From an uncultured Gammaproteobacteria bacterium (GTDB lineage: Bacteria > Patescibacteriota > Patescibacteriia > UBA9934 > CAZDDW01), in the NCBI GenBank assembly GCA_964504365.1, contig CAZDDW010000003.1, positions 8,031-72,030 of the forward strand: 64,000 nt of DNA, in the 5' to 3' direction. Below the pieces are notes generated by a model. It saw only the letters and a list, made by a program, of their open reading frames with translations. It was not told the DNA's origin and searched no databases. Shown piece after piece: positions 4,478 to 59,229 of the stretch (position 1 is the first letter of the stretch; each line of letters starts with the position of its first letter). Made by a program: the position numbers and the translations under genes.

Positions 4478-4494
4478 ATCAACATTCTGAGGCT

Positions 4495-4523
4495 ATTTTA
4501 GCTTATTTTAGGCTTATGTGCAA
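4495..4523 (-). promoter_or_regulatory. sigma70-like promoter of asnS (TTGCAC, 17 nt, TAAAAT on the minus strand)
   Basis: The reverse complement reads TTGCAC ataagcctaaaataagc TAAAAT, ending about 17 nt before the asnS ATG; the spacer contains the TAAGC word seen in other promoters here. Confidence 0.45.
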
Positions 4524-4546
4524 ATCTACTTACTCACACTATCTAA

Positions 4547-4578
4547 AAACCCTGATAACTTACCAGGGTCTTTTATTT
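4547..4578 (-). terminator. rho-independent terminator after the 4601..5683 gene
   Basis: accctg-ataacttacc-agggt hairpin followed by a T-run when read on the minus strand. Confidence 0.5.
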
Positions 4579-4600
4579 GCTCGGTACTAGCCACTGATGA

Positions 4601-5683: not shown

Positions 5684-5783
5684 ATAAATAATATTATTAA
5701 TATTTGTGACTACTTTAACCCATTTATCGCTATATTGCAATATATATTGACTTTTGCTAAGCTAAAAACAAGGAGGGCAAAGA

Positions 5784-6050
5784 ATGCCAAAAACAAAAAT
5801 ACCCCGGTCAACCGGGGATACCATTCGTGCAGTGTTCGCTGGCGAGATCGAGCCAAGGCCGGATCCTGAACGTGACCGAGTTACTCGGCAACTGACCGAA
5901 GAAATGTGCGGCACGTACGCCATGGATCACATGCCGAACGTCGGTGCTGAGGGTCCGGTTCGTTCCGAAGAGAATCGTGTCGAAGGTGTTGGTGGCGACC
6001 GCCGCAGCCATCTGCGATCGCCACACTCACGAGCACATCGCCGCCGCTAA
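5784..6050 (+). CDS. small GC-rich hypothetical protein (88 aa) with an Arg/His-rich C-terminus
   Basis: Strong ribosome-binding site aaggagg 8 nt upstream of the ATG, a hairpin terminator immediately downstream, and a GC content far above its neighbours. Confidence 0.4.
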   Translation: MPKTKIPRSTGDTIRAVFAGEIEPRPDPERDRVTRQLTEEMCGTYAMDHMPNVGAEGPVRSEENRVEGVGGDRRSHLRSPHSRAHRRR

Positions 6051-6058
6051 CCAACTTC

Positions 6059-6080
6059 TAGACCCATCTCGGGTCTTTTT
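6059..6080. terminator. bidirectional hairpin terminator between the small ORF and recO
   Basis: tAGACCCatctcGGGTCTttttt, flanked by A's on one side and T's on the other. Confidence 0.55.
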
Positions 6081-6081
6081 C

Positions 6082-6855
6082 TTATACCAAACTAGCAACT
6101 CTTAATGATGTGGCTGGAATGGTTGGAAAATGACAGACCAGGAGTGATTCGACCAGGTCGTGGAATTCGAGCAAGGTCTGGCCAGGGATAGTTGGTTTAA
6201 GAAATTCTGTTGGTGATTCACGTGAAGCAAAGCGGATTAACTTCAAAGCGTCATCTGATATCTCACGCGCAGCAAACCAACTTTCCTGATCAACCATAAC
6301 ACAGCGAGAACAGACTACCCCGCCCTTGAGTCCATGCCAGCGATACGTACCCGGCTCGATCTCTAACTTGCAAGACAAACATCGCGTCAACTCTGGACGA
6401 TATCCTGAAATGCCGAGCAACTTCAAAGCAAAGGCAGCGAGCAAGAATCCAGCACGTTCTTGCGAGATCTCTGGCACACTTTCAATAAATTCAAGCCACT
6501 TTAAAACCTCCTGATACAACACTGGATCCTGCTCTTCGTGACGTGTAGCCAGGTCAACCAGATGCAGTGTCTGGCGCGCCAGGAGCAAACGATTTATGTC
6601 TGTGCAGATTGGATGATACGCTCGCAATCGCTCTACACCAGCAACAGTGTCGACTACACGGCCTCGTACTACCAACAAATCCAGAATCGCGAACGATTCG
6701 AGATGTGGACCAAGCTTGGCTCCAATCTTACGCGAGCCACGAGCATGCAATGACATCTTGCCTCGTTCCTCTGTCAAAACAGAATAAACACGATCATGCT
6801 CTCGATGATCGCGTCGGGCTAAGACTATTCCGTTTGTTTGAAACAGGACTGACAT
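6082..6855 (-). CDS. recO: DNA repair protein RecO
   Basis: 257 aa with an N-terminal OB fold (MSVLFQTNGIVLARRDHREHDRV) and a C-terminal Cys4 zinc motif (CLSC...CSRC). Confidence 0.75.
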   Translation of the reverse strand: MSVLFQTNGIVLARRDHREHDRVYSVLTEERGKMSLHARGSRKIGAKLGPHLESFAILDLLVVRGRVVDTVAGVERLRAYHPICTDINRLLLARQTLHLVDLATRHEEQDPVLYQEVLKWLEFIESVPEISQERAGFLLAAFALKLLGISGYRPELTRCLSCKLEIEPGTYRWHGLKGGVVCSRCVMVDQESWFAAREISDDALKLIRFASRESPTEFLKPTIPGQTLLEFHDLVESLLVCHFPTIPATSLRVASLV

Positions 6856-7247
6856 TATTTGTTTTGATCTAAATACGCTTGCAAGACTAACATGGCAGCC
6901 AGGGCATCGTCCGCAGCCTCAGCACCTTCTTCACGCTGCAAGCGAATGCTCTCAGCGGTTGTGTAGCGTTCGTCTTCTTCGTGGACTGGGATCGAGACAA
7001 CCTCTTGTAAACCTTTAATAAACGACCGTGTCTTTTCTAATTGTGGCGAACCTGGCCCTTCAACCGTAGACAACGGAACCCCTATAACAATCTCATCGAT
7101 CTGTTCAACAGCGATTCGGTCGGCCAGTTTTTGATAAATGTTCTCAACATTCTGGATTACATCCAAAGGCACAGCAATACCGGCTTCTGAATCCCCAAAA
7201 GCTAGTCCGATCTTTTTATCTCCATAGTCGATTCCGAGATACCTCAT
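6855..7247 (-). CDS. ruvX: Holliday-junction resolvase-like RuvX/YqgF
   Basis: MRYLGIDYGDKKIGLAFGD, the RNase H-like YqgF signature. Confidence 0.75.
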   Translation of the reverse strand: MRYLGIDYGDKKIGLAFGDSEAGIAVPLDVIQNVENIYQKLADRIAVEQIDEIVIGVPLSTVEGPGSPQLEKTRSFIKGLQEVVSIPVHEEDERYTTAESIRLQREEGAEAADDALAAMLVLQAYLDQNK

Positions 7248-8020
7248 ACTGGTAGTGGGGTTAAAATCTCAGGACCGGATTCTGTGGCTACCATCGTCAC
7301 TTCAAAGTGAGCCGCCAGCGAGCGATCTGCAGTCACAGCTGTCCAGCCGTCGTCTGCGGTCTCTAATAAATATTCTCCGGCTGTAATCATTGGCTCAAGG
7401 GCCAAACATTCACCTTCTACAATTTTTTTCTTCTTCATTGCTCGATCATAAAAATTTGGAATCCGTGGTTCCTCATGTACTTCATGACCGACTCCGTGTC
7501 CGACCAATTGTCGTACGATTCCATATCCATGCGGTGCAATCGACTTTTCAACAGCCATACCGATATCTGCGATCGTGCCACCGACATGCACAGAAGCAAC
7601 AGCGTCGAGCAAAGCCTGCTTTGTCGCAGCCATTAGATCAGAAGCCTCCTTTGACACATTACCCACTGGCACAGTCACTGCCATGTCCGTGTATAGATCT
7701 TTATATTTGCACCCAAGATCAAGTCCAACAATATCGCCTTCTTTGAGTTCAATGTCGCGATCTGCGGTTCCATGAACAACTTCTTCGTTTATGGAAACGC
7801 ACAATGAACTTGGAAATGGATTGTCATCATGTGGCGTAGAGAAATTCAAAAATGAAGGCTCACCGCCCCCTGCCCTGATCTCAGCTTCTGCGATCTTGTC
7901 CAGCTCAGCAATCTTTGCACCCGGCCGCACCGCTTTGACCGCTTTGCCTAGTGCCTGTGATAGGATCTGCCCACCTTCTCGCATTAACTCAATTTCCTGT
8001 TCAGTCTTCTTTATAGCCAT
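7244..8020 (-). CDS. map: methionine aminopeptidase type I
   Basis: MetAP metal-ligand motifs are present, including DIVGLD and HGVGHEVHE. Confidence 0.85.
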   Translation of the reverse strand: MAIKKTEQEIELMREGGQILSQALGKAVKAVRPGAKIAELDKIAEAEIRAGGGEPSFLNFSTPHDDNPFPSSLCVSINEEVVHGTADRDIELKEGDIVGLDLGCKYKDLYTDMAVTVPVGNVSKEASDLMAATKQALLDAVASVHVGGTIADIGMAVEKSIAPHGYGIVRQLVGHGVGHEVHEEPRIPNFYDRAMKKKKIVEGECLALEPMITAGEYLLETADDGWTAVTADRSLAAHFEVTMVATESGPEILTPLPV

Positions 8021-8022
8021 AT

Positions 8023-8511
8023 TTATTTAACATCTTCAAAGATCCCTAATTTTTTATTCTTTTTAACTTTGTCCCACTGGAAAATATGGCCATTCATGGC
8101 GATATAAACACCGGCCGGCATAGACTGAGCAAAAGCAATAGCACTGCCCAAATTAAATAATCCATCAGAACTACCGAACTTCCAAGGAACCATTGCTCCA
8201 GTCAACACAACGGTCTTGTCTTTAACTTTTTCAGCAACCACTTCTGCGGTATCAACCATAGTGTCAGTACCGTGAGTAATAACAATATTCTTCTCATCAA
8301 CCTCAGCACAATTCTCAGCAACTGTTTTTCGATCTGCATCAGTCATATCCAAAGAATCAATCATCATTAAAGTGCGCATTTCTACATCAACCAAATTTCT
8401 TCCCAACTTAAGCATTTCTGGCAAGTGTGTGTCTTTAAAAAACAACTCACCGTTTAGCTCATTATACTCTTTATCAAACGTCCCTCCGGTTAGAAAAATT
8501 CTTACTTTCAT
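8023..8511 (-). CDS. L-asparaginase-family N-terminal-domain-only protein (162 aa)
   Basis: FLTGGTFDK, ITHGTDTM and VVLTGAM match the asparaginase/glutaminase N-domain motifs; no C-terminal domain follows. Confidence 0.5.
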   Translation of the reverse strand: MKVRIFLTGGTFDKEYNELNGELFFKDTHLPEMLKLGRNLVDVEMRTLMMIDSLDMTDADRKTVAENCAEVDEKNIVITHGTDTMVDTAEVVAEKVKDKTVVLTGAMVPWKFGSSDGLFNLGSAIAFAQSMPAGVYIAMNGHIFQWDKVKKNKKLGIFEDVK

Positions 8512-8513
8512 AA

Positions 8514-9140
8514 TTATATTTTCAGACTTTTAGTTATATTGTTTGCTACTTCCTCAATCGAACCACTGCCATCAATCTCAACCAAAATTCCCATTTCTCG
8601 ATATCGCTCAACCATAGGTTCAGTTTGTTCATGATAAACCTTCAGCCGTTCACGTATCGCCTCTGGTGTATCGTCTTCACGCTGCTCTGGCTTGCCACCA
8701 CAGGGACAACCTTCTGCTGGTGGTGGATTGTATTCAATATGATAAATCCGACCGCAAGCAAAACAGGTGCGCCGCCCAGAAATCCGCTCCACAGCCGTGT
8801 CGTCATCCAGGTTGATCAGTATTGCGTGCGTTGGCTGATCGATTTTTAAAAACAGATCAAGTTGATTCAGGCGCCGAGGAAAGCCGTCAAGGATATAGCC
8901 GTTCTTTGCATCGTCGCGATTCAATCGTTCACGAACAACCTGATCTGTCAGATCATCTGGCAACATCTTACCAGCATTAATTGTCTCATCCACCTGTTTA
9001 CCCAGAGGGTTATCCTGCTCGGCAATCTGACGCAATAGGCGCCCCATAGAAATCGCTGGTATCCCAAGCCTCTCAGACAGCTTTTCCGCCTGAGTACCCT
9101 TCCCAGAGCCCTGCGGCCCAATCATTAATATCTTATGCAT
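8514..9140 (-). CDS. adk: adenylate kinase with a Cys4 zinc lid
   Basis: P-loop MIGPQGSGKGTQ, and the lid motif CFACGRIYH...CPCGG. Confidence 0.85.
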   Translation of the reverse strand: MHKILMIGPQGSGKGTQAEKLSERLGIPAISMGRLLRQIAEQDNPLGKQVDETINAGKMLPDDLTDQVVRERLNRDDAKNGYILDGFPRRLNQLDLFLKIDQPTHAILINLDDDTAVERISGRRTCFACGRIYHIEYNPPPAEGCPCGGKPEQREDDTPEAIRERLKVYHEQTEPMVERYREMGILVEIDGSGSIEEVANNITKSLKI

Positions 9141-9224
9141 ACGCAGACAGTATAGCAAAGGATGAAAGGAATCCAAAGCGAGGTCTTTCGACCCCGCACA
9201 CTTGATACTTACATTATGAAACTT

Positions 9225-10481
9225 CTAATAATCGTACTCCCGCATGGCAACCTGGCCCTCAATCTGCTTGATCATATCAATAATAACTGAAACCACAATC
9301 AAGATTGATGTTCCACCAACAATCATTGAAGCATTACCTGTTGCCTGTTGCATAATCAACGGCAGCACAGCGATCAGGGACAAGAAACTTGCTCCTCCAA
9401 ATAGAATTCGATTTGAAATCCAATCTAGATATTCAGCAGTTGGTGTACCTGGTCGGATACCCGGAACAAAGCCACCTTGTTTCTGCAAGTTGTCTGCAAT
9501 TCTGTCCGGATGAAAAACCACATTGGCATAAAAGTAAGTAAAACCAAATACCAAAACAAAATAAGTAATTCCGTAAAACAGCTGATTCTGGAATAACTGA
9601 TTAATCCAAGTTGCCGCGGTCTGCAAGAACTCACTATTAGCAGCCATAAAAAACTGAGCAACCATGGTTGGGAACAAAACAATCGAGATGGCAAAGATGA
9701 TCGGAATCACACCAGCCAAGTTCACTCGAATTGGCAAGAATGATGCTGATCCACCACCTCCGCGCAAACGACGAGCATACTGAACCGGAATGTTGCGCTG
9801 GCCTTCGTTCATAATTACCACACCAATAATCGTGGCAATGGTCACTACGGCAAACATAATCATAATAAACAGTTGTGACATGTCAAAAGTGGCAAATGTT
9901 CTCTGGAAAAAGCTTGGTAGTCCAGCCAAAATTCCAGCAAAGATCATGATGGAAATACCGTTTCCAATTTTGCGTTCAGAAATCAATTCACCCAACCACA
10001 TCAAAAAAATGGTTCCAGCAGTCATAACTATTAACGATGTAACCAAATGATATCCGGTAATACTAAATCCAAGTGCCCCGCCCTGCTGGCTCAAAAGAGC
10101 AATCAAACCATAGCCCTGCAACACGGCCAATGGAACAGTTGAGTAGCGTGTCCACTGAGTAATCTTTTGTCGTCCAGCCTCTTCCTTTTGCATTTCCTCT
10201 AACTTCGGCACAATCATAGCCAGCAGCTGGAAGATAATTGAGGCAGTAATATATGGGGCCACACCAAGGGCTACAACGGAAAAGTTATCCATAGTTCCAC
10301 CGGCAAAGATGTTCAGCAGCCCAAAGAACTGATTTGTTTCAAATAAACTAGATAGGGCTGTGGCGTCAACACCTGGAACTGGAATATGAGCAGCTAATCT
10401 AAAAATCACGAGCATGCCCAGCACAAAAAGTATGCTTAAACGCAGCTCGCGAATTTTGAATATTTTTTTAAATGTCAGCAT
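9225..10481 (-). CDS. secY: preprotein translocase SecY
   Basis: 418 aa with ten transmembrane segments and the N-terminal SecY pattern [25 protein letters not shown]. Confidence 0.9.
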
Positions 10482-10487
10482 AGGTTG

Positions 10488-10931
10488 CTATGCAATGCTT
10501 CCTCCAGCTTTTTCAATCTTCTCTTTTGCTGAAGCAGAAACCTTACACTCTTTGATGGTCAGCTTAGTTTTGATTTCACCATTTCCCAGAATCTTCACAC
10601 CGTTACGAACAGTAGAAACCAGACCTTTTTCTTTTAGAACACGTGGGTTAACCTCTGCGCCGTCTTTAAAGCTCTTAGCCAATTCTGAAACATTAACCAC
10701 CTCAGCCTTTGGATGAGGGCTCTTAAATCCACGTTTCTTAGGGATATTTAACATGATAAGACGTAATCCTTTCTTTTTCAAGCCCGCTTTTCCACCAGAA
10801 CGAGATCGCTGACCTTTTCGTCCACGACCAGAATATTTTCCTTTTGAAGCCCAACCACGACCAATACGCTTGCGGCTTTTCTTTGCTCCCTTACCAGGTT
10901 TCAGATTGTGTAGAGTAATTTCTTCAGCCAT
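10488..10931 (-). CDS. rplO: 50S ribosomal protein L15
   Basis: LKPGKGAKKSRKRIGRGWASKGKYSGRGRKGQ. Confidence 0.9.
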   Translation of the reverse strand: MAEEITLHNLKPGKGAKKSRKRIGRGWASKGKYSGRGRKGQRSRSGGKAGLKKKGLRLIMLNIPKKRGFKSPHPKAEVVNVSELAKSFKDGAEVNPRVLKEKGLVSTVRNGVKILGNGEIKTKLTIKECKVSASAKEKIEKAGGSIA

Positions 10932-10933
10932 AT

Positions 10934-11581
10934 TTATTTATCAGACTTCTTCTCAGTCGTCTTTTTAGCAGGTTTCTTAGCTGCTGGTTTCTTCACCTCT
11001 CTCTTGACTTCCTTTTTTTCAGCCTTCTTCACCACAGCTTTTTCTTTATCGGTTTTTACACCTTCTGGTACGCGCAGTTCTCGCAATGCTTTCATTGTTG
11101 CATTGGCAATATTGATCTTATTGTTTGATCCAAGAATTTTCGCTGAAGCGTTTGGTACACCACCAAGCTCAAGCAACATGCGCATGGCACCACCAGCTTT
11201 CAGTCCAGTTCCTTTAGGCGCTGGCATTAACAAAACCTTGGCTGCACCAAACTTCATGTTAATGGCGTGTGGTAGTGTCTCTTCAATCATTGGAATATCA
11301 ACAATGTTTTTCTTGGCTTGTCGGAATGCTTTATCAACAGCAAGAGCAACGTCAGCACCTTTAGCTAAACCAACTCCAACACGACCCTTCTTGTCACCAA
11401 TTACTAAACAGGCGCGGAAGCGAAGCCGTTTACCACCAGCAGTAACTCGAGTAACTCGCGCTAGATCCAAAATCTTCTGCTCAAACTCCTTTGGTTCGCG
11501 CTTCATTCGTCGGCGTCCTTTGCCCCTAGGCTTTCCTTTAAAGCCCCCCTTCTTGAATGGTTGTTTCTTCTGTTCTGGCAT
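10934..11581 (-). CDS. rpsE: 30S ribosomal protein S5 with a lysine-rich C-terminal tail; L30 gene absent downstream
   Basis: S5 core (RVTRVTAGGKRLRFRACLVIGD) plus a KK-rich tail; rplO follows directly with no rpmD between them. Confidence 0.9.
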   Translation of the reverse strand: MPEQKKQPFKKGGFKGKPRGKGRRRMKREPKEFEQKILDLARVTRVTAGGKRLRFRACLVIGDKKGRVGVGLAKGADVALAVDKAFRQAKKNIVDIPMIEETLPHAINMKFGAAKVLLMPAPKGTGLKAGGAMRMLLELGGVPNASAKILGSNNKINIANATMKALRELRVPEGVKTDKEKAVVKKAEKKEVKREVKKPAAKKPAKKTTEKKSDK

Positions 11582-19757: not shown

Positions 19758-20945
19758 TTAATTGATAACTTTGGTTACAACTCCAGCTCCTACAGTTCGT
19801 CCACCTTCACGGATAGCAAAGCGCTGTTTTTCCTCAAGAGCAATCGGCTGAATCAACTTAACTGTAACATTAACCTCATCTCCAGGCATAACCATTTCTA
19901 CTCCGTCTGGCAAAGTAACTTCACCGGTAACATCAGAGGTTCGTGTGAAAAACTGTGGCTTGTATCCTTTGAAGAATGGCTTGTGTCGTCCACCCTCTTC
20001 TTTGGTCAAAGCATATACCTGAGCTTCAAACTCTGTGTGTGGAGTAACTGAACCTGGTTTAGCCAAAACCTGTCCGCGCTCAACCTCGTCTTTCTTAGTA
20101 CCACGCAGCAAAATTCCAGCATTATCACCAGCCTGTCCCTGATCAAGAGTTTTGTTAAACATCTCAACACCAGTAACAGTTGTTTTTGTAGTCTCCTTCA
20201 AACCAACCATTTCTACTTCTTCACTAACGTTTACAATACCACGCTCAATACGACCAGTAACCACAGTTCCTCGTCCCTCAATTGAGAAAACGTCTTCGAT
20301 AGGCATCAGGAATGGCTGATCAGTAGCACGTTCTGGCTCTGGAACATTTTCATCAAGAGCTGCTAGAAGATCTTTAATTGACTTTGTGGCTTCTTCATCA
20401 TCTGGATTCTCAAGAGCTTTCAAAGCAGAACCACGAATAATTGGAGTCTCATCACCTGGGAACTCATATTTCTTAAGCAAATCTCGGATCTCCTCCTCAA
20501 CAAGGTCAACCAATTCAGGATCATCAACCTGGTCAACTTTATTCATATAAACAACAATGGCAGGTACACCAACCTGACGAGCAAGCAAAATGTGCTCACG
20601 AGTCTGTGGCATAGGACCATCAGCAGCAGATACTACCAAAATAGCACCGTCCATCTGTGCAGCTCCAGTGATCATGTTCTTCACATAATCAGCGTGCCCT
20701 GGACAGTCAACGTGCGCGTAGTGGCGCTTTTCAGTTTCATATTCAACGTGAGCAGTAGCAATAGTAATTCCACGCTCTCGCTCCTCTGGTGCTTTGTCAA
20801 TCTGGTCAAAAGCTTTTGCTTGACCCTGACCCATATTAGCAGCAACCTGAGTAATAGCCGCAGTTAAAGTTGTTTTACCGTGGTCAACGTGACCAATAGT
20901 ACCAACGTTTACGTGCGGTTTTGATCGATCAAATGTTTCGGCCAT
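19758..20945 (-). CDS. tuf: elongation factor Tu
   Basis: [18 protein letters not shown] and NKVD motifs across the 395 aa protein. Confidence 0.95.
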
Positions 20946-21052: not shown

Positions 21053-21463
21053 TTATTCGACTGGCTCAAGGTAAAACTGCTCTTCTGGCTCATCGTCTGA
21101 TTTACCCGCCTTATCTTCGCTTAAGTTAGCGTTAATCTTAACATCTAGCTCTGATTCCTCTTGCACCAACTCTGCCCCTAGCTTATCTATCAACTCCACT
21201 GGCGGTTCAGGAGCAAATTCTTCATCAGACGATGACTCAACTACATCATCGAATATAAAATCCTCATCTAAATCCTCAGGCTCAAAATCGCCAAACATGT
21301 CTTCGTCTCCACAATATGGCTCAATCAAGCCGTTTTCCTCCAACAAGATCTCATATTCGTCTAAATCCATGACCACAAAGGCTTGTTCCCCATCAGGGTC
21401 AGTAACCACCAACTTATCGCCAGTGCGACGAACTAAATCTAAAATGCGTTTAAAGTTATTCAT
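21053..21463 (-). CDS. hypothetical acidic protein whose N-terminus resembles Phd/YefM antitoxins
   Basis: ILDLVRRTGDKLVVTDPDGEQAFVVMDLDEYEILLE fits the YefM beta-alpha pattern, followed by a long tail rich in D and E. A TTGACA-type promoter lies upstream and no toxin partner sits adjacent. Confidence 0.4.
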   Translation of the reverse strand: MNNFKRILDLVRRTGDKLVVTDPDGEQAFVVMDLDEYEILLEENGLIEPYCGDEDMFGDFEPEDLDEDFIFDDVVESSSDEEFAPEPPVELIDKLGAELVQEESELDVKINANLSEDKAGKSDDEPEEQFYLEPVE

Positions 21464-21542
21464 AGTATATTTTAAGTTGAGCTTATCTTAGCTTATTTAC
21501 CCAAACTGTCAAGTGCATATTCTGGGGTTAAGTAGTCGATCA

Positions 21543-21734
21543 GGCCGGCCACTCCTCTTGTCGTCAGAAGCAAAGAGCCGAAGGGTTTTGAATTGTGGAA
21601 CGATCGGAGGCCGGTGTCCTTACTAATTTTCAATTTTCATTCAATAACCAATGACCATTGTGACATTGAAAATTCAATGTAAATTCTAAATTGAAAATTG
21701 TAAATTTATTATCTGAGGCTCCCTGTGGCCGGCC
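21543..21734. mobile_element. MITE-like element copy 1 (about 190 bp, terminal inverted repeats GGCCGGCCAC...GTGGCCGGCC)
   Basis: The left 75 bp (GGCCGGCCACTCCTCTTGTCGTCAGAAGCAAAGAGCCGAAGGGTTTTGAATTGTGGAACGATCGGAGGCCGG) and right end (CTGAGGCTCCCTGTGGCCGGCC) are near-identical to the ends of a second copy at 39009..39218. The termini are inverted repeats and the interior is AT-rich. Confidence 0.5.
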
Positions 21735-21740
21735 AAAAGA

Positions 21741-21770
21741 AAAGGCCCCGCCGCAGTCAAGCGACGGGGT
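21741..21770 (-). terminator. terminator of the 21798..23015 gene
   Basis: ccccgccgc-agtcaa-gcgacgggg hairpin followed by TTTTCTTTT on the minus strand. Confidence 0.5.
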
Positions 21771-21797
21771 CGTGTTGAACGATGGAGCCAGTTCGTT

Positions 21798-23015
21798 CTA
21801 CTGGGGAGTCTGTACCTGAGCCACGGGTTCGGGCGGCGTGTTGAGCGCGGCCAGCTGTCCGGCGACCATGGTCTGGTAACTCGCCGTGTACTTCAGCGTA
21901 CGCACCGTGCGCAGATCCGTGGCCACTCGCGCGGTCATGCCGCGGACCTCGTCGGCCTCCATACCGGACCACTGGGCAGCCAGAGTCAGCCAGACCCGGG
22001 TGTTGACCACCCAGTCCTCGTACTGCTGGACCGTGCCACCGAGAGCCACGATGTCCTCGTAGCGGCGCATGTAGAATCCGTCATACCCGGATCCGGTCGT
22101 GGTCTCGGCATCGATCTTGCGCCGCAGCTCGACCGGGTCCACGAACGAACCGGACCAGTAGCCGCTGATGTAGTCGTGCGCGTTGTTGGTCAGATGCTCG
22201 GGCAGCATCGGCTTGACCGTTTCGTAGTCCTGGCTGAGGATCAGCCAGGAACCGACGTTGCTCAGCACGTCCTCGTCGAGCACGGCCTGGCGTGCGGCCA
22301 GGATGAGCTCCTCGCAGGGACGATCGACATCGCCGTCGACCTCGCAGATCTCACCGTTGATCAGGCCGTGGTAGGAGATCGTGTCCCCGAGACCACCGAG
22401 AACCCAGGCACCAACGAAGGTGCGTGCGTTGACCGGAACCGGGAAGGTCTCGGCCAGGCGGGTGATCAGCTCGGGCTGACCGTCGGTGTTGACGACCAGT
22501 GCCTGCTCCTCACGCATCAGCTGCATGGCATTCAGACCCTCGGGCAAGGCCGGGAATCCGCCGGTATCGAGGGCGGCCGTGAAGGCACGCAGGGTGTCGA
22601 ACGGCTTCTTCTTCTCGTCGAAGCTCTTCTGCTGCTCGGCATTGAACTTGTCGGCCAACGCCTCCAGGCTCGCCGGCGTGGCTGCCAGCTCCGCCTCGAC
22701 CTTGGTCAGATCGGATTCGAGGGTGGCGATCTTGGCCTTCAGCGCGGCCATATTCTCGCGGTGCTCCCGCTCCTCGTCGGTCTCGCCGATCGGGGGCATG
22801 CGCTGCTCCCCAGACGAATCGTCGGCGACTGCATTGGTCTCGTCCCCGTCCGCAGTCGGATCCGCGGGCACGGTCTCCTCGGCTGCCTCGGCCTCGTCGT
22901 TTCCGAAAGCCCAGCGCAAGGCCGGCTTGAAACCGATCACGATGACGAACAGCACAACGCCGATACCGACGAACCAGGGCCAGCGGCGGGAACTCTTGGT
23001 GGTGGGATCTCCCAT
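21798..23015 (-). CDS. GC-rich hypothetical type II membrane protein: short N-terminal tail, one transmembrane helix, acidic linker, coiled coil, and a ~270 aa C-terminal domain
   Basis: Start at MGDPTTKSS with ribosome-binding site gaggagag; transmembrane segment WPWFVGIGVVLFVIVIGF; coiled coil ENMAALKAKIATLESDLTKVEAELAA. Far more GC-rich than the flanking tuf and fusA genes. Has its own TTGACA, 17 nt, TATTAT promoter and its own terminator. Confidence 0.5.
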   Translation of the reverse strand: MGDPTTKSSRRWPWFVGIGVVLFVIVIGFKPALRWAFGNDEAEAAEETVPADPTADGDETNAVADDSSGEQRMPPIGETDEEREHRENMAALKAKIATLESDLTKVEAELAATPASLEALADKFNAEQQKSFDEKKKPFDTLRAFTAALDTGGFPALPEGLNAMQLMREEQALVVNTDGQPELITRLAETFPVPVNARTFVGAWVLGGLGDTISYHGLINGEICEVDGDVDRPCEELILAARQAVLDEDVLSNVGSWLILSQDYETVKPMLPEHLTNNAHDYISGYWSGSFVDPVELRRKIDAETTTGSGYDGFYMRRYEDIVALGGTVQQYEDWVVNTRVWLTLAAQWSGMEADEVRGMTARVATDLRTVRTLKYTASYQTMVAGQLAALNTPPEPVAQVQTPQ

Positions 23016-23130
23016 GATTTCTCTCCTCTTCTCGATTGAGATGAACGTTGTTGAAGCGACCCTCCATAGGCCGCGCTTGGGTTGATCTCGCGCTTGACTG
23101 TCCACCAAATCGGACAGTTAGCAACGCCGA

Positions 23131-23159
23131 ATAATAACACGTTTAAGCTTATCTGTCAA
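23131..23159 (-). promoter_or_regulatory. consensus sigma70 promoter of the 21798..23015 gene
   Basis: The minus strand reads TTGACA gataagcttaaacgtgt TATTAT, with AT-rich UP-like sequence (aagcttatttaagc) upstream. Confidence 0.5.
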
Positions 23160-23187
23160 CCCCAACAGGCTTAAATAAGCTAAAAAG

Positions 23188-23215
23188 AAAAACCCGTTGC
23201 AAGCAACGGGCAGGG
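23188..23215 (-). terminator. terminator of the 23235..23920 gene
   Basis: cccgttgc-aag-caacggg hairpin followed by TTTTTCTTTTT on the minus strand. Confidence 0.5.
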
Positions 23216-23234
23216 CCTAGCCCCTAGAGTCGTT

Positions 23235-23920
23235 CTACTGTGCTTCGGGCCACTTCTCGGGCAGCTCGGCCAGCATGCGATCGATGTCTTCCCGATAGGC
23301 CTCCGTATACAGGAGACCCTCCGGCGGATTGACCAGAGTGGCTTGAGCAGCCTTGAGCGAGGTCTCGGCAATTGACCGGCTGGTACAGCGGAAGGTCTGA
23401 ACTCCATCCCAGTACCGGGCCGTCGCGTGCTCGGGTGTTCCTTCTTCGAAGCACCCGTACAGAGCAATCCAGAGATGGAGGCTCTTGCATCCGTCTGGAT
23501 GATTGGCAAAGACCTCGTTGCCGAGCGCGTTGATCTCATCCTCATCAAGGAAGCTCAACGCTTCGCAACGAGCTGCTTCCCGCTCTTCGGCCTGCTCTGA
23601 CATGTTCTGCACGATCTCAGCCTTGAGACGCTCGTTCTCAGCCTTGAACTCGTCCAGCTCTTCCTGGAACGGATTGACCTCAGGCTCTTCAGGAACCGGA
23701 TCCATAGGTACGGCATTGGCAGCCTGCCCAGAATCACTATTCAGGGGCAGAAGACCAAAACAATCCCAACCGTTCCGGATATCCAAGTACCCCATTCCAA
23801 TGATCACCAGAAGAAAGACCAGGACCACCAAGACCCATAACCACCATAAACTCCTGCGCGAACCAGCCGCCCCAGAACCACTGGCGTCGTGTACCTTCTT
23901 TGTTTTATCGTCGGACATGA
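23235..23920 (-). CDS. GC-rich hypothetical type II membrane protein with the same architecture as its neighbour (transmembrane helix, Pro/Glu linker, coiled coil, ~110 aa Cys-containing C-terminal domain)
   Basis: Start at MSDDKTKK with ribosome-binding site gaaagg; transmembrane segment LWWLWVLVVLVFLLVIIGMGY; coiled coil EELDEFKAENERLKAEIVQNMSEQAEE; own promoter and terminator. Confidence 0.5.
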
Positions 23921-23973
23921 TCTGCCTTTCAACAGTAGAGCTGTTTAGTGAATGAACATTTTCGTAACGCAAA

Positions 23974-24002
23974 ATAATAGCATAAATAAGCCTAATTGTC
24001 AA
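23974..24002 (-). promoter_or_regulatory. consensus sigma70 promoter of the 23235..23920 gene
   Basis: The minus strand reads TTGACA attaggcttatttatgc TATTAT. Confidence 0.5.
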
Positions 24003-24029
24003 GGTAGTGAGCACAAAGCCGACGAACGG

Positions 24030-24062
24030 AAAAGACAAAACCGACGAACATTCGTCGGTTTT
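24030..24062 (-). terminator. fusA terminator
   Basis: Perfect hairpin ccgacgaa-ca-ttcgtcgg followed by TTTTGTCTTTT on the minus strand. Confidence 0.6.
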
Positions 24063-24087
24063 GTGCTTATTTTAGTCGGTTTCGTGC

Positions 24088-26172
24088 TTACTCTTTCTTC
24101 CCTCGCTTTTCAATAATCGCATCAGATACATTGCGTGGAACATCCTCATAGTGATCAAATTCCATTGAATAGCTAGCTCGTCCCTGAGTAATCGAACGCA
24201 ATTCAGTAGCATAACCAAACATCTCAGCCAACGGCACAAACGCTTCAACCACTTTCATGTTTCCACGATCACGCATTTCCTGAATCTTGGCTCGCTTAGA
24301 ATTCAAATCACCAACAACTGTTCCCATAAAATCTTCCGGTGTCACCACCTCAACTTTCATCACAGGCTCTTGCAAAGTAATTCCAGCTGCCTTGGCTGCG
24401 GCTTGGAAAGCCATAGAACCAGAAATCTTAAACGCAGCCTCAGAAGAGTCAACTTCGTGATAAGAACCATCATAAACAGTACATTTAATATCTAGCACTG
24501 GATATCCAGCCAACACACCACGCTCCATCGCCTCTTTAACACCCTTGTTAATCGGTTGGATATATTCCTTTGGAATCACACCACCTTTAATCTCATCAGT
24601 AAATTCATAACCACCACCAGCCTCAAGAGGCTCAATTCGCAACCAACAGTGACCGTACTGACCACGACCACCAGACTGACGAACAAATTTCCCCTCAGCT
24701 TCAGCCAACTTTTTGATCGACTCTTTGTAAGCCACCTGCGGAGCACCAACATTGGCCTCTACTTTAAACTCGCGCTTCATTCTATCAACAATAATATCTA
24801 AGTGCAGTTCTCCCATTCCAGAAATAATTGTTTGCAAAGTTTCATCATCTGTACGCACTTTGAAAGTTGGGTCCTCTTCAGCTAACTTAGCTAAAGCAAC
24901 TCCCATCTTTTCCTGGTCAGGCTTTGTCTTTGGTTCAATAGCAACAGAAATCACAGGTTCTGGGAATGTAATATTTTCCAAAACCACTGGATTATTTTCA
25001 TCACACAATGTTTGTCCGGTAGTCGTCCCTTTCAAACCAACTACAGCCGCAATGTCACCAGCATAAATCTCATCAATCTCTTCACGGTGATTAGCGTGCA
25101 TACGCAACAGTCGTCCGATGCGTTCTTTCTTTCCAGTTGATGCATTCAACACATAAGAACCTGACTTCAACACACCAGAGTAAACGCGGATAAAAGCTAA
25201 CTTACCAACAAACGGATCAGTAGCAATCTTGAATGCTAATGCAGCAAACGGCTCCTCATCAGAAGCTGGACGTGGAATAACTTTTTCTTCATCGTCTGGA
25301 TCAGTTCCTTCAACAGGTGGAACCTCCAATGGACTTGGTAGGTAATCAACAATCGCATCTAGCAATGGCTGCACACCCTTGTTCTTCAAGGCAGTACCAC
25401 AAAGCACAGGGATAATCTCTAGTTTCAAAACAGCCTCGTGCAAAATCTTTTTAATATCTTCCAAAGGGATCTCTTCACCAGCCAAATATTTTTCCATGGC
25501 CGCCTCATCATTTTCCACAATCGCTTCCATTAATTTCCCGCGCCACTCATCAGCTAACTCTTTCATGTCTTCAGGAATATCAGTCTCTTCCATTTCTTGC
25601 CCAAGATCATCTTTATAAATAGTTGCCTTCATGGTTAACAAATCAACAATCCCAGTAAACTTATCTTCAGCACCGATTGGCAGCTGCAAAGGATATGCTT
25701 TCTTGGTCAACCGCTCATGAATCGAATTCAGATCGTAAAAGAAATCTGCACCGGTTCGATCTAGTTTGTTAATAAAACAAATTCGCGGCACATTGTACTT
25801 GTCAGCCTGGTGCCAAACAGTCTCTGACTGTGGCTCAACACCAGCAACACCGTCAAAGATAACAGCACCACCGTCAAGCACACGCAATGAACGCTCCACC
25901 TCAACGGTAAAGTCTACGTGCCCTGGGGTATCAATAATATTAACTCGGTGATCTTTCCAGAAACAAGTTGTTGCAGCGGAAGTAATAGTAATACCGCGCT
26001 CTTGCTCTTGCTCCATCCAGTCCATCTCAGCTTCACCCTCATGCACCTCACCGATCTTATGCTTTTTACCAGTATAAAACAGAACTCGCTCAGTAACCGT
26101 AGTCTTACCAGCGTCAATATGAGCAATGATTCCAATGTTACGAGTTTTCTCAAGTGAATATTCTCTTGGCAT
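24088..26172 (-). CDS. fusA: elongation factor G
   Basis: 694 aa with [17 protein letters not shown] and NKLDR motifs. Confidence 0.95.
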
Positions 26173-26190: not shown

Positions 26191-26658
26191 TTAGCGTGCA
26201 AAGTGAGCAAAGGCACGGTTTGCCTCAGCCATTTTCTGCACATCAGTTTTCTTTTTAATAGCATCGCCCTCATTGTTGGCTGCGGCAATAAACTCATCAG
26301 CTAGACGATCAGCCATTGGACGACCTTTTTTGCTACGAGCAGCAGCCAACAACCATCGATAGCTCAAAGCAACACGGCGCTCGCCGCGTACAGGAATAGG
26401 GATCTGATAGTTGGCTCCACCGATTCGACGTGAACGAACCTCAAGTGATGGACCAATATTCTTCATGGCAGTATCAAAAACCTCTACTGGATCTTGCTTA
26501 GTTTTCTCAGCCACAATATCAAAAGCATCGTAAACTACTTTCTGTGCAGTTGACTTCTTTCCCCCTTTCATAACGTAATTAATAAATTTAGCAACGAGAA
26601 CGTTGCTATACTTGGGGTCGGGTGTAATAACCCGCTTTGGTGCTTGTTTCCCACGCAT
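26191..26658 (-). CDS. rpsG: 30S ribosomal protein S7
   Basis: [36 protein letters not shown]. Confidence 0.9.
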
Positions 26659-26732: not shown

Positions 26733-27152
26733 TTAGCTTTTAGGCTTTTTAGTTCCGTATTTAGATCGACTACGCTTTCGTCCATCAACACCCTGAGTGT
26801 CATAAACTCCACGAACAACGTGATACCGAACACCAGGCAAATCTTTCACTCGACCACCACGGATCATCACGATTGAGTGCTCCTGCAAATTGTGACCTTC
26901 ACCTGGAATGTAAGCTGTTACCTCAGTACCATTTGAAAGACGCACACGAGCAATCTTTCGAATAGCTGAGTTTGGTTTCTTTGGTGTAGCAGTTGTCACC
27001 TTAACACAAACACCACGCTTAAAGGCACTTCCCTTTTTGAGCGCAGTAGTTTTTCTATGCAAAGAATCCAGCGTGTACTGCATTGCTGGAGATTTACTGT
27101 TTTTCTTTGAGGTCTTCCGACCCTTTCTAATCAATTGAGAAATTGTAGGCAT
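26733..27152 (-). CDS. rpsL: 30S ribosomal protein S12
   Basis: The start is [13 protein letters not shown]; PKKPNSA is also present. Confidence 0.9.
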
Positions 27153-27238
27153 ATTTCTGAAGTGCCGAAATAATAACATGAGGTTAAAATTAGGTCAAGT
27201 GGCTCTGTGAGGAAAACATTGGTCAGAGCATAATAAGC

Positions 27239-30260: not shown

Positions 30261-30983
30261 ATGTCGCTGGTATTCCAACCTCTTCCCAACGCGCTACTGG
30301 CCCTGGCCAAGCTGCCCCATGGCAGGATCATCGACGACGATGACAACACCTACACCATCATGCACGAAGGTGAGGCCGAAGCGGCCCTGGTCGCACTGAG
30401 CGAAGCTGGGTGCGACGAAGACATGGTCGAACTCATGCGCACCGAGCTGATCGCGCTCAACTTCCCAGCGGATCTAGGCGAGCTGATCCTGGCCCTGACC
30501 CAGGTCAACCTGGGCGATGACTTCGACCCGGGCGACCTGAGCTTCGAAATCTGCGAACCCGACGAGGACATCAAGGTGCCGCATGGCCAGATCATTCAGG
30601 ACGATCACCTCGCCGGCGCCTCGGCAATCACCAGCATGGAGCACGCGCTCTCCATCATGATGGTCGGTGCCAGGGATGGGTTCATTACCGCCGAACAGGG
30701 AATCTTCCTGCTCAAGCAAATGGCTGCGGCCGACCTGATGCTCACCCAGAAGCAAGTGCTGGCCCACCACGGCTACACCCGAGACACTGACGGCACCTAC
30801 CGCTCCGAGGCCCGGGACGGATCGACCAAAGTCGAAACGGCTACCCGGATCCTTCACATGGGACCGCTGACGATCCTCGTTTCCAGAATCGAGACCACCG
30901 AGATCGACGGCGAGGACGAGCCGCGCGACACGGTCGAGGATGACGAGGGCGGTGACAGCCCGACCGAGGGCGGCGGCTGGTAG
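30261..30983 (+). CDS. GC-rich hypothetical acidic protein
   Basis: Ribosome-binding site aaaggaga 6 nt before the ATG; promoter TTGACG, 17 nt, TACTCT upstream. High GC; no recognisable motif. Confidence 0.45.
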   Translation: MSLVFQPLPNALLALAKLPHGRIIDDDDNTYTIMHEGEAEAALVALSEAGCDEDMVELMRTELIALNFPADLGELILALTQVNLGDDFDPGDLSFEICEPDEDIKVPHGQIIQDDHLAGASAITSMEHALSIMMVGARDGFITAEQGIFLLKQMAAADLMLTQKQVLAHHGYTRDTDGTYRSEARDGSTKVETATRILHMGPLTILVSRIETTEIDGEDEPRDTVEDDEGGDSPTEGGGW

Positions 30984-33042: not shown

Positions 33043-34383
33043 TTAGAGAGGCAGGAACACTCGACTGCGTCGTGTCTCGATCCGATGCAATCGATCGTGG
33101 TAGCGGTGACGAACACCCTCAGCCTGATCACGATTGGCACCCACAAAGAACAGAGTGGCCTTGCCTGAACCGCGCCAGCAGCCCGGATTACCAGGAACGA
33201 TTCCAGGACGATCCGTACCGTCATAGAGCATCCCATCGACCCGATGATGAATCAGGTCTTCGTGGCCCATACCCTTAGGTATTTCAGTGTTCTCCATAAC
33301 CACACTGCAACTGCCACCGAAACGCGGAGCAACCTGATCAGCGAACGAGCAGACATACTTGGCCGCAGTACCGCGACCATTGATCTCGATCACGTAGACA
33401 AAGACCATTCCGGCGAAACGGATGACCAACAGGTCGATCCCAATAGTCCGAACCATTTCCTGGTCTGGTTGACCGCCACGACCAACACCCCGTCGAACAG
33501 CTTCGTTGCAAAACGGAATGATTGCTCGCATGATCGCCTGGTAGACTTGTACATCGACCAAGAACTGACCGACCGAGACAATATTGCCCTTGTGGGCATT
33601 GCCTTCGGTGATCTGCTGCGTTAGTTTGAGCAGTTTCCAACCGCCCAAACCAACAGCCACCTGGGCGCTGATCTCAGTCATATCGAACATGTCAGCCGGA
33701 TAAGCCGCCTCGATCACCAGTTGCTTGTGGCCATGCTCGGCCAAGAACTGAGCCACCTCAGCAGGATCCGTTCCTGGACCAACGAGCAAGTTGCTTGCTC
33801 CCCCATCAGCACCTGGGTCCTTGAGCATGACCGAATCAGTCTCCAGAACTTCGGCCGCCTCAGCCAAAACTTGTTGACGCAAGCGATCGAAATCGCCTAG
33901 ATTGCGAAACATGCTCCGCCAGGCCGTGAAGTGACCAGCTGCACCAGGCAAGAGTCGAGCACTGAGCTTGTGATCGAACAGTTCTGCCAGGTTTGGCTCG
34001 ATCGCCGCAGTATCACGGAAGCGCAGACCAAGCATCTGGCGAACCAAGAAGCTCAGCCGCGGGGTGAACAAACTCAACGGCCTTCCCTGCGCAACAGATC
34101 GTTGCACCTGTTGCAGCTCATCAGCGTAGCGCAGCAATCCCCGGGTCAGGTCACCACCAGGAACGACCACTAGCTGGTCAGCCCCAAGCTCGATCTGACG
34201 CATGTAGGCAAAAGTATCTTCGATATCCAGACGCGTCCCCTGCGTATCGGCACCAGTCACAGTCATGCCTGGGCAGACCAGGCTCCGGCTGGCGTAGTTA
34301 GCCAACCCACCGATATCAATCCCGCGACTCCGAAACGGAGTCATGTCGTCTACGTTCGTCTGCAGCCGCGTGAATGCGTCCAC
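33043..34383 (-). CDS. GC-rich putative ATP-grasp family ligase
   Basis: VMLKDPGADGGASNLL resembles the ATP-grasp glycine-rich loop (compare glutathione synthetase VKPLDGMGGASI), and VFVYVIEINGRG resembles the E-x-N motif. Likely GTG start at VDAFTRLQ with ribosome-binding site aaagagggg. Confidence 0.4.
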   Translation of the reverse strand: MDAFTRLQTNVDDMTPFRSRGIDIGGLANYASRSLVCPGMTVTGADTQGTRLDIEDTFAYMRQIELGADQLVVVPGGDLTRGLLRYADELQQVQRSVAQGRPLSLFTPRLSFLVRQMLGLRFRDTAAIEPNLAELFDHKLSARLLPGAAGHFTAWRSMFRNLGDFDRLRQQVLAEAAEVLETDSVMLKDPGADGGASNLLVGPGTDPAEVAQFLAEHGHKQLVIEAAYPADMFDMTEISAQVAVGLGGWKLLKLTQQITEGNAHKGNIVSVGQFLVDVQVYQAIMRAIIPFCNEAVRRGVGRGGQPDQEMVRTIGIDLLVIRFAGMVFVYVIEINGRGTAAKYVCSFADQVAPRFGGSCSVVMENTEIPKGMGHEDLIHHRVDGMLYDGTDRPGIVPGNPGCWRGSGKATLFFVGANRDQAEGVRHRYHDRLHRIETRRSRVFLPL

Positions 34384-34634
34384 TGGTTTCCCCTCTTTGG
34401 TTAAAATGTGCACAAAACAAAACGACCTCACTCATGAGGCCGTCCCTGTTTACCAGATTATGTCTAAATAATCAAGAACGGCCTTATGAAATAAAGAGGT
34501 CAATAATAAGTCCTACGAACATGTCGCGGTCAACTTTTCCAATTTGTGTCGCAGGATAATTCATATCGAATGTAAATCTATCATACCTTATTTTTCCGGT
34601 CAAATTAAGGGGGGCTGTGGATAGTCGACCAGGC

Positions 34635-39008: not shown

Positions 39009-39218
39009 GCCGGCCACTTCTCTTGTCGTCAGAAATAAAGAGCCGAGGGGTTTTGAATTGTGGAACGATCGGAGGCCGGACTATCAAATCCACTCTATAA
39101 ATAAGTATCATTTTAATGTTCCGGCCGACGCCGAGCGAGGCAATGATCATTCTCGACCCAACCACCCTGCGGGCCGAGCGCTTCCACAATCAAAACCCTG
39201 AGGCTCCCGTGGCCGACC
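39009..39218. mobile_element. MITE-like element copy 2
   Basis: Same terminal sequences as copy 1 (CCGGCCACTTCTCTTGTCGTCAGAAATAAAGAGCCGAGGGGTTTTGAATTGTGGAACGATCGGAGGCCGG ... CTGAGGCTCCCGTGGCCGACC). Sits in the 3' untranslated region of the MFS gene, upstream of ugd. Confidence 0.5.
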
Positions 39219-43478: not shown

Positions 43479-43604
43479 CCTTCTCATGCCACGCGCTGGG
43501 CAAGGCTCTCACAGGGTACTACGACCTCACCGGTCCTGGGCTCTACCAAATGGGACTTGATCCCTGATCCTTGTACTAGCGTCTACCACGAAAGGAGATG
43601 TGCC

Positions 43605-57711: not shown

Positions 57712-57866
57712 ACCCGGCCTCCTTTCGTCACCCAAAGGGCAAACCCAATGGTGATATTAACTTACTACAATATATAAATCCCATCAAATGTATCATCAGC
57801 ACCTGGTGCAACTCGGCGCTTTTTTCTTTGTCTGATTTCATGCTATGCTAAATACAAGGAGGATTA

Positions 57867-58150: not shown

Positions 58151-58380
58151 CGACCGATGTGTCTGTGTCGGGCAATCCGACAAACAAGGCAGATGAGATC
58201 AGGAATGTCATGAGAAAGAACAGGAGCAGGACCAGACAAAGAACAACAGCCCAAGCAGACTTTCTGGTCACAGCAAGTGCAGTAAACAATCCGGACAGGA
58301 AAGAGCTAGCCGCAATCATTAGAAACAAGATCATCATTTCCTCCAAAACCAACCTTACACCAACCCGCTAGAAAAGAAAA

Positions 58381-58405
58381 ATCCCTCGTTGCCGAGGGGC
58401 GATGA
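58381..58405 (-). terminator. terminator of the 58434 gene
   Basis: ccctcg-ttgc-cgaggg hairpin followed by ATTTTTCTTTT on the minus strand. Confidence 0.5.
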
Positions 58406-58433
58406 GGGACAGGTCCAATCAAGGGCGATCGGA

Positions 58434-58640: not shown

Positions 58641-58717
58641 CACCTCCTAATTAGACCATATCATTATTTTACCAAAAATAAAAATCCGACCAGGTGGTCG
58701 GAATGAGTACGTGCGGT

Positions 58718-59149: not shown

Positions 59150-59229
59150 GAGGCCTCCTTGCTGTCGTAGCTCACGACTAAAAGATCTTGCCACAAAAAC
59201 CTGATACTGTCAATTCCTGGTATTTCAGG

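Follow-up and report, generated by a model that had tools for sequence, protein, structure and literature searches.

A GC-rich pair of orphan genes between fusA and tuf in a Patescibacteria chromosome: predicted membrane-anchored proteins in a variable accessory slot

Introduction

Why do two genes of strongly deviating base composition lie between fusA and tuf, among the translation genes of a bacterial chromosome, and what kind of element do they form? The question is raised by a stretch of 64,000 nucleotides (referred to below as the window) of contig CAZDDW010000003.1, assembly GCA_964504365.1, positions 8,031 to 72,030, which was deposited as an uncultured Gammaproteobacteria bacterium and is placed by GTDB in Patescibacteriota. 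On the minus strand of the window the order is rpsL, rpsG, fusA, two open reading frames (ORFs) here called A and B, a repeat resembling a miniature inverted-repeat transposable element (MITE), a Phd-like gene, tuf, rpsJ, and the S10 operon. A first-pass annotation, made from the sequence without database searches, had described two genes rich in guanine and cytosine (GC) between fusA and tuf, and both the gene order and the windowed GC content bear this out.

The islet formed by A and B is real and population-fixed in the chromosome, and the block is compositionally foreign. It is probably a set of moron-like accessory cassettes for orphan proteins anchored with the N-terminus inside and the C-terminus outside, located in a variable fusA-tuf slot of a chromosome of the candidate phyla radiation (CPR). 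Taken by itself, the locus is of an ordinary kind, namely a small islet of accessory genes at a site that varies within the lineage.

Base Composition

Windowed GC content reaches 63-67% in B and 53-59% in A, compared with 42-45% in the flanks on both sides; summarised over the block, it is 56-65%. The shift is found mainly at third codon positions. There, B has a GC content (GC3) of 0.85 and A one of 0.64, while rpsL, rpsG, fusA, tuf, rpsJ, rplD, rplB, and the Phd-like gene range from 0.31 to 0.42. The encoded proteins deviate as well, with a ratio of GARP to FYMINK residues of 1.4-1.6 (host proteins range from 0.6 to 1.4, the majority below 1.25, with murA at 1.43) and an arginine share, R/(R+K), of about 0.6. 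The compositional deviation from the host described at first reading is thus confirmed by windowed GC, GC3, and amino acid usage. The GC-rich block itself is smaller than first estimated, about 2.2 kb instead of 2.5 kb, and it is interrupted by the AT-rich promoter region of B. Both promoter stretches are AT-rich like the host, with 33% GC in the 84 nt upstream of A and 38% upstream of B.

Two further points follow from these values. In the annotated frame of B, GC content decreases from the third codon position (0.85) to the first (0.66) and the second (0.44), the order expected of a genuine GC-rich coding frame. This gene is overlapped by alternative ORFs of 199-287 codons. In addition, the two genes are 0.21 apart in GC3, a difference that speaks against their joint arrival from one donor in a single recent transfer.

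Assembly Support and Population

Exact-sequence look-ups with the products of fusA, tuf, the Phd-like acidic gene, and B led to contigs in JGI samples 3300009374 (where the contig is 51 kb long), 3300009375, 3300009008, 3300009106, and 3300009405, as well as in several ENA assemblies labelled SUTE22-1 and SCRA20-1. The possibility of a chimeric assembly, raised in the first-pass annotation, can be answered directly: independent assemblies from about ten samples cross both junctions at 99.96-100% identity. The exact B protein is encoded by ten contigs, and its context is identical in all ten. Several assemblies break at the MITE-like repeat.

A second cluster of contig ends was observed inside gene A. 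Contigs L096, L097, L088, and L092, which come from four assemblies and three samples, end or start within 23477-23502, while other assemblies read through this region; the cluster hints at a branch in the assembly graph, caused by a minor haplotype or a coverage problem. Two ENA scaffolds labelled SCRA20-1, L095 and L099, could pass for strain variation and were rejected as such. The 428-aa form of B in L095 (around 9190-9262) is a scaffolding artefact with runs of N and stray sequence. The different genes upstream of tuf in L099 (around 2860 and 4130) result from a false join of two Phd-tuf loci across an N gap inside the Phd-like gene.

The fusA-tuf Slot in Related Genomes

Among 185,579 species representatives, the nearest fusA genes belong to Falkowbacteria-, Kerfeldbacteria-, and Veblenbacteria-type Patescibacteria, with identities of up to 76%. 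By this sequence comparison, the host is closest to Falkowbacteria-type Patescibacteria. Because the closest available relative has a fusA gene only 76% identical, the insertion can be dated only loosely.

The 19 closest relatives have a fusA gene at least 70% identical and tuf on the same locus, and their fusA-tuf gaps measure 408-5,467 bp, compared with 139-163 bp in Bacillus-type genomes. At least 13 of the relatives' gaps hold a small acidic protein gene just upstream of tuf. Its product has a Phd/YefM-like segment at the N-terminus, followed by an acidic stretch that varies and, at the C-terminus, by the conserved motif (R)FYLEPVE, which reads FYLEPVE in the window. The Phd-like gene is the ancestral, native occupant of the gap. 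Other cargo in relatives includes kinase-like and Fic-like genes (L005) and an HNH-type gene (L011), and small N-terminally anchored proteins are encoded in the gaps of L007, L008, L012, L014, and L017. The idea that A and B are diverged versions of these anchored proteins was rejected, as no similarity was found. None of the 27 relatives' gaps examined contains a homologue of A or B.

Since the gaps already measure 408-5,467 bp and carry variable cargo, this lineage does not have an intact str operon, and the interval from fusA to the Phd-like gene serves repeatedly as a slot for accessory genes. The relatives' gaps have a GC content close to, or usually below, that of their locus. What is unusual at this locus is therefore the composition and not the split. 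The earlier description of a conserved str operon split by an insertion holds in the sense that A and B are missing from every relative's gap examined, but not in the sense that an otherwise closed operon was opened, as the native Phd-like gene also parts fusA from tuf.

The Phd-like protein matches PF02604 with an E-value of 3.6e-6 and 27.1 bits, below the cut-off of 29.8, and only over its N-terminal 43 residues. No toxin gene was found beside it, so that neither mark of a type II antitoxin (a PF02604 match above cut-off together with a toxin gene) was observed. The Phd-tuf pair occurs twice in the organism: in the str operon and upstream of nusG-rplKAJL-rpoBC (L085, Phd-like gene at 899-1309). 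The Phd-like protein may be a partner of tuf instead of an antitoxin.

Several loci of the fusA-Phd-tuf type with CPR character, including L004, L013, L017, and L034, appear in the databases as, for example, uncultured Gammaproteobacteria, Pirellulales, or Leptospira biflexa. Such oddly named contigs are probably misbinned or mislabelled contigs of metagenome-assembled genomes.

Homologue Searches

Searches of A, B, and their C-terminal domains against Pfam, NCBIfam, PHROGs, and PADLOC returned only sub-threshold coiled-coil noise. The best family scores were obtained for IcmG/DotF (E = 0.012), MreC (E = 0.056), and FtsL (E = 0.13), all far below the curated cut-offs, and no PHROG match fell below E = 0.01. 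A word-indexed search of 5.8 billion proteins with A and B recovered only the same genes from the same organism. An exhaustive phmmer search of 1.84 billion representatives with residues 135-405 of B (271 aa) gave the protein itself and two repeat proteins, P0003 and P0004, which were rejected as spurious because their scores sum many weak repeats. A match in a JGI metagenome, L083, was the only one of its scan and was discarded as a low-complexity Q/K/E coiled coil. Scans of IMG/VR revealed no relatives of A or B, tblastn against 50,697 phage records and against plasmid records found nothing for either protein, and the same was true of phmmer against PDB sequences. The first reading had called for homology searches with both proteins; across protein, profile, phage, and PDB searches, neither has a family or a homologue.

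Of the proposed horizontal acquisition from a high-GC donor, the foreign composition and the absence from 27 relatives' gaps stand, but the donor does not, as neither the 5.8 billion protein index (A and B) nor the 1.84 billion representatives (C-terminal domain of B) contain a donor homologue. A CPR relative with 64% GC was considered as a source of whole cassettes and rejected, because its promoter regions have 48-55% GC and not 33-38%.

Promoters, Ribosome-Binding Sites, and Terminators

The exact pattern TTGACA-N17-TATTAT occurs three times in the 64 kb of the window, while dinucleotide-preserving shuffles give an expectation of zero. Two of the three sites lie directly upstream of A and B, both with a TG-extended -10 element. 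The third is found at 62540-62568 on the minus strand. A promoter-like sequence of similar style precedes rpsL (TTGACC-17-TATTAT with TG). The ATG codons of A and B are preceded by the putative ribosome-binding sites GAAAGG and GAGGAGAG, respectively, and T-tracts accompany the terminator-like hairpins after fusA, A, and B. The pattern scan against shuffles and the hairpin scan thus agree with the earlier statement that each gene has its own consensus promoter, ribosome-binding site, and hairpin terminator (Table 1). Judging from consensus matches only, A and B would be transcribed from host-type sigma-70 promoters, and the predicted terminator of fusA would insulate fusA from the islet.

Short motifs are shared between the promoter regions. 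The 9-mer GCTTATTTA occurs three times in the whole window, in each case in the promoter of A, B, or the Phd-like gene. The motif ATAAGCT is present in eight copies, five of them within 21180-23175, of which four belong to the regions that carry the promoters of B and of the Phd-like gene; a further copy is located immediately 5' of the rpsL promoter. A common regulator may act on the promoters of the islet and of the Phd-like gene. The 5' leader of B has no match in Rfam, where a relaxed threshold gave only a chance alpha-tmRNA fragment (E = 0.16). Directly 3' of the fusA stop codon, an imperfect palindrome of about 87 nt (24006-24092, detected as a self inverted match) encloses the hairpin with the 13-bp stem.

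Architecture of Proteins A and B

Both proteins contain one strongly hydrophobic segment near the N-terminus, with Kyte-Doolittle maxima over 19 residues of 2.87 in A and 2.40 in B and no other segment above 1.0-1.03. In both cases, Arg-Arg precedes this segment, which, together with the positive-inside rule, suggests a topology with the N-terminus inside and the C-terminus outside. We infer that both are bitopic membrane proteins. The segment is followed by an acidic, proline-containing linker with a net charge of -8 in A (residues 61-100) and -12 in B (residues 41-80). With a simple home-made predictor, the heptad score of B at residues 79-113 was reached by one of 200 shuffles, while that of A was reached by 94 of 200. 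Single-sequence AlphaFold2 models agree with the assigned secondary structure.

The matching architecture proposed at first reading is retained for the single hydrophobic segment, the acidic linker, the helices, and the C-terminal domain in both proteins. By the heptad score, the coiled coil is retained for B but not for A. A relationship of A and B as paralogues was considered and found unconvincing, since BLASTP gives only E = 0.003 over the transmembrane segment and linker and E = 0.011 over 78 C-terminal residues.

Table 1. Coordinates of genes, predicted signals, and repeats in the window, and predicted layout of proteins A and B (residue numbers).
Feature	Position	Strand	Details
rpsL	26733-27179	minus	
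rpsG	26191-26658	minus	
fusA	24088-26172	minus	
Terminator-like hairpin after fusA	24035-24064	minus	13-bp stem; detected on both strands
Predicted promoter of A	23974-24002	minus	TTGACA-17-TATTAT, TG-extended -10; GCTTATTTA inside spacer
Gene A	23235-23918	minus	227 aa from the ATG preceded by GAAAGG
Intrinsic-terminator-like hairpin of A	23192-23211	minus	followed by TTTTTCTTTTT
Predicted promoter of B	23131-23159	minus	TTGACA-17-TATTAT, TG-extended -10; GCTTATTTA 13 nt upstream of -35; ATAAGCT in spacer
5' leader of B	23016-23124	minus	about 105-110 nt, 52% GC; ends in the putative ribosome-binding site GAGGAGAG
Gene B	21798-23015	minus	405 aa from the ATG preceded by GAGGAGAG
Intrinsic-terminator-like hairpin of B	21746-21769	minus	9-bp stem with 8 G-C pairs, followed by CCTTTTCTTT
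MITE-like repeat	21543-21734		192 bp; bounds the islet on the tuf side
Predicted promoter of Phd-like gene	within the 21053-21512 unit	minus	TTGACA-16-TAAGAT
Phd-like acidic gene	21053-21463 (with promoter to 21512)	minus	136 aa
tuf	19758-20945	minus	rpsJ and S10 operon next
Second MITE-like copy	39009-39217		between a UDP-glucose dehydrogenase gene and a major facilitator superfamily gene; TA on both flanks
Protein A, predicted layout	1-22; ~23-45; ~61-85; 85-122; remainder		tail; hydrophobic anchor; acidic proline-rich linker; long helix; ~100-aa helical C-terminal domain with 5 cysteines
Protein B, predicted layout	1-11; ~12-30; 38-80; 79-113; 115-150; remainder		tail; anchor; strongly acidic linker; heptad helix; helix; ~255-aa mixed alpha/beta C-terminal domain

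The MITE-Like Repeat

The islet is bounded on the tuf side by a non-coding element with perfect terminal inverted repeats (10 of 10 nt), GGCCGGCCAC and GTGGCCGGCC. A module of 71 nt within it is 94% identical to part of the second copy in the window. These two features, the perfect repeats and the second copy, substantiate the MITE-like element noted earlier at this border. A third copy, 89.6% identical to the second, is found in L085/L099 upstream of the second Phd-tuf pair. No clear target-site duplication was recognized at the copy next to the islet. The core of this copy (21615-21710) has 22% GC, and in it the palindromic pair ATTGAAAATT/AATTTTCAAT is repeated four times; the second copy does not have this core. 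Two readings are possible for the core: an insertion nested in the element, or an array of operator sites at a distance of 110-190 bp upstream of the Phd-like promoter.

The element resembles a MITE in its length, its non-coding nature, its perfect terminal repeats, and its presence in more than one intergenic copy. It differs in having just two copies in the window and one at the second tuf locus, in its unclear target-site duplications, and in the unrelated AT-rich core at this locus. As regards mobility in general, no integrase, transposase, tRNA gene, or clear flanking direct repeat was found between the 19-kb and 28-kb marks of the window.

GC-Rich Orphan Genes as a Class

The islet is not the only GC-rich region of the window. 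Further stretches lie at 30.2-31.1, 33.0-34.5, 43.5-44.9, 57.0-57.8, and 58.3-59.2 kb, and within them the segments 30261-30983 (+), 33043-34431 (-), 43557-44900 (+), 57046-57735 (-), and 58300-59200 have 55-62% GC and GC3 values of 0.59-0.81. Each stretch holds ORFs without a Pfam match, interspersed with core genes (murA, GATase genes, and leuS are examples). In the 22 kb around the locus for which Pfam annotation is available, the five Pfam-less genes have GC3 values of 0.48-0.85 (mean 0.67), compared with a mean of 0.37 and a maximum of 0.52 for the 21 annotated genes (Mann-Whitney p = 4.5e-4). Reading the translations of the other GC-rich orphans by eye revealed no obvious N-terminal hydrophobic segment. 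Consequently, the class is not defined by surface exposure. Promoter-like and terminator-like sequences were also seen by eye beside several of these ORFs.

One member of the class can be followed into relatives. The orphan gene at 43605-44900 has a few homologues of 28-49% identity, located, as in the window, between leuS and a rhodanese gene, in CPR contigs whose leuS is 78-81% identical. The homologues are GC3-rich as well, with values of 0.41-0.64 against 0.28-0.42 in their flanks. In L104, four tandem paralogues of this leuS-adjacent family occupy 4810-10961, and their GC3 falls from 0.61 to 0.41 as identity to the window protein falls from 49% to 28% (flanks 0.28-0.39); L107 carries a homologue at 3252-4592. 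In at least this family, high GC content has thus lasted or been renewed over considerable divergence, and taken alone it is no proof of recent import. The neighbouring leuS gene (40404-43310, minus strand) encodes 968 aa and contains an inserted NUDIX hydrolase domain with the Nudix box GGVDDGEDLIDAAKREIEEETGY; the L104 and L107 homologues have PF00293.

These observations provide the more interesting lead of this analysis, a putative genome-wide class of GC-rich orphan cassettes. It is a speculative claim, and one that we regard as unlikely, that the lineage carries a distinct class of fast-evolving orphan cassettes, each complete with promoter and terminator and with A and B as the extreme, whose GC3 is held at 0.6-0.85 against about 0.37 in the genome even at conserved positions (leuS only about 80% identical).

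Proposed Explanation and Known Systems

The explanation judged probable, that of moron-like accessory cassettes in a variable slot, involves two separate transcription units. Each would consist of a host-type sigma-70 promoter, a ribosome-binding site, a foreign orphan gene, and an intrinsic terminator. The terminators would insulate the core translation genes, namely fusA upstream and the Phd-like-tuf pair downstream. The products of A and B would insert into the membrane with the N-terminus inside, and their globular heads would be held off the membrane by a flexible, acidic and proline-rich linker and the helical stalk; the stalks of A and B may pair. Most likely, the two proteins face outward from the membrane and serve as accessory components of the envelope or cell surface. 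Their heads could act there by binding, for instance in adhesion, in contacts with a partner cell, in organisation of the envelope, or in exclusion of phage or foreign DNA. The working of the promoters and terminators, the membrane topology, the pairing of A with B, and the function are all read from sequence patterns and are to be taken as predictions, and it is the architecture that suggests a role in host interaction.

The comparison that gives this explanation its name is with phage morons. As described by Hendrix and colleagues, morons are additional single genes of deviant composition, each equipped with a sigma-70-type promoter and an intrinsic terminator and inserted between genes that are adjacent in relatives. 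The A and B units are similar in that each is a single gene of deviant composition with its own promoter and terminator, as far as consensus matches indicate. They differ in their location in a bacterial chromosome, inside the str/S10 region, where the neighbours are fusA, the Phd-like gene, tuf, and ribosomal protein genes, and in the lack of any PHROG, phage, or virome match.

A second comparison is offered by genomic islands, which are common in Patescibacteria (PMC12455944). The islet shares with them atypical GC content, orphan cargo, and absence at the locus in relatives. In contrast, it comprises only two genes and has no integrase, tRNA, direct repeats, or identifiable donor, and the host genome also has a GC-rich orphan that is conserved in position across relatives. 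A third group of known systems includes the FtsL/DivIC, PilN/PilO, MreC-type, and VirB8/VirB10-type pairs. In these bitopic membrane proteins, a short tail in the cytoplasm is followed by one transmembrane helix, a stalk that is helical or a coiled coil, and a domain outside the membrane, as predicted for A and B, and the partners are likewise encoded side by side. The differences are that A and B have no significant family match, that their heads have no known fold, and that they form separate transcription units and not an operon.

Several observations weigh against the proposed explanation. The coiled-coil signal of A is not significant, which concerns the stalk. The structure models are of low confidence (predicted local distance difference test, pLDDT, of 61 for A and an unusable 43 for B), which concerns the folds of the C-terminal heads, and Foldseek searches of A against PDB and BFVD gave no match below E = 0.05. 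A cleaved signal peptide instead of a membrane anchor is possible for B. No mobility genes, tRNA, or clear target-site duplications were found that would account for the arrival of the DNA. Finally, the population is nearly clonal, and the three single-nucleotide polymorphisms in A and B (M383I and a synonymous change at V371 in B, M215V in A) are too few for a test of purifying selection.

Alternative Explanations

The alternative that survives best places A and B in a class of rapidly evolving orphans intrinsic to the lineage, whose high GC content is maintained or constantly renewed and does not mark a single recent import. GC-biased gene conversion at recombination hot spots, or turnover of cassettes from a GC-richer gene pool that Patescibacteria share, could be the mechanism. 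We regard this alternative as possible but doubtful. The difference in GC3 between Pfam-less and annotated genes points in this direction, as do the family at 43605-44900, which is syntenic and GC3-rich in CPR relatives, and the reported predominance of transfer within the phylum in Patescibacteria (PMC12455944). It is weakened by the fact that only one family was traced in relatives and that A and B themselves have none. The import of whole cassettes from a donor such as the 64% GC CPR relative is made unlikely by the composition of that relative's promoters. Moreover, gene conversion is not known to produce values as extreme as the GC3 of 0.85 seen here against a genome level of about 0.37.

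It is unlikely that both genes arrived as one module in a single recent transfer from a high-GC donor outside the CPR and were later domesticated with host promoters for the interaction of an epibiont with its host. The GC3 of B, the shift of amino acid usage towards high-GC types, the absence of A and B from the relatives' fusA-tuf gaps examined, and the predicted membrane anchoring with exposed C-terminal domains are all consistent with it. No donor homologue was found among the 1.84 billion representatives (C-terminal domain of B) or in the 5.8 billion protein index (A and B), however, and the compositions of A and B look like separate events or sources. Consensus promoters in DNA of 33-38% GC beside unameliorated coding sequences are hard to fit to slow domestication, and the other GC-rich orphans of the window do not appear to be membrane proteins.

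Improbable, in our assessment, is a remnant of a phage or mobile element, with A and B as true morons or as membrane proteins of the superinfection-exclusion type. The frequent occurrence, among phage accessory genes, of those for small proteins that combine a transmembrane segment with a coiled coil counts in its favour, and so do the individual promoter and terminator, the deviant GC content, and the insertion between genes adjacent in relatives. On the other side, there are no phage genes, integrase, or attachment sites nearby, and PHROG (E <0.01), the 50,697 phage records, IMG/VR, and BFVD yielded nothing. An artefact, whether a chimeric metagenome assembly or GC-rich non-coding DNA with chance ORFs, is so improbable that it may be set aside: high-GC DNA does bear long chance ORFs such as those overlapping B, and some ENA scaffolds of the organism contain N-gap scaffolding errors, but both junctions are crossed in about ten samples, including the 51-kb JGI contig, the frame of B has the codon-position pattern of coding DNA, and each ORF is framed exactly by promoter, ribosome-binding site, and terminator.

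Biological Significance

If the claim of a distinct class of orphan cassettes were true, it would imply either a force on base composition that is specific to a class of genes or a pool of GC-rich cassettes that refills fixed accessory slots beside core translation genes. This would not be ordinary transfer followed by amelioration. Should the pattern prove general, the detection of horizontal transfer by composition would need rethinking for these genomes.

For the accessory cassettes themselves, the significance lies in the biology of the host. CPR genomes are tiny, most of their lineage-specific genes are uncharacterised, and surface proteins are prime candidates for a role in the dependence of these bacteria on other cells. 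A and B are two orphan proteins, predicted to be strongly promoted and anchored, whose genes are fixed in a natural population beside the most highly expressed genes of the cell. The locus offers a well-defined target, recovered from independent samples, for work by metatranscriptomics and metaproteomics and for heterologous expression.

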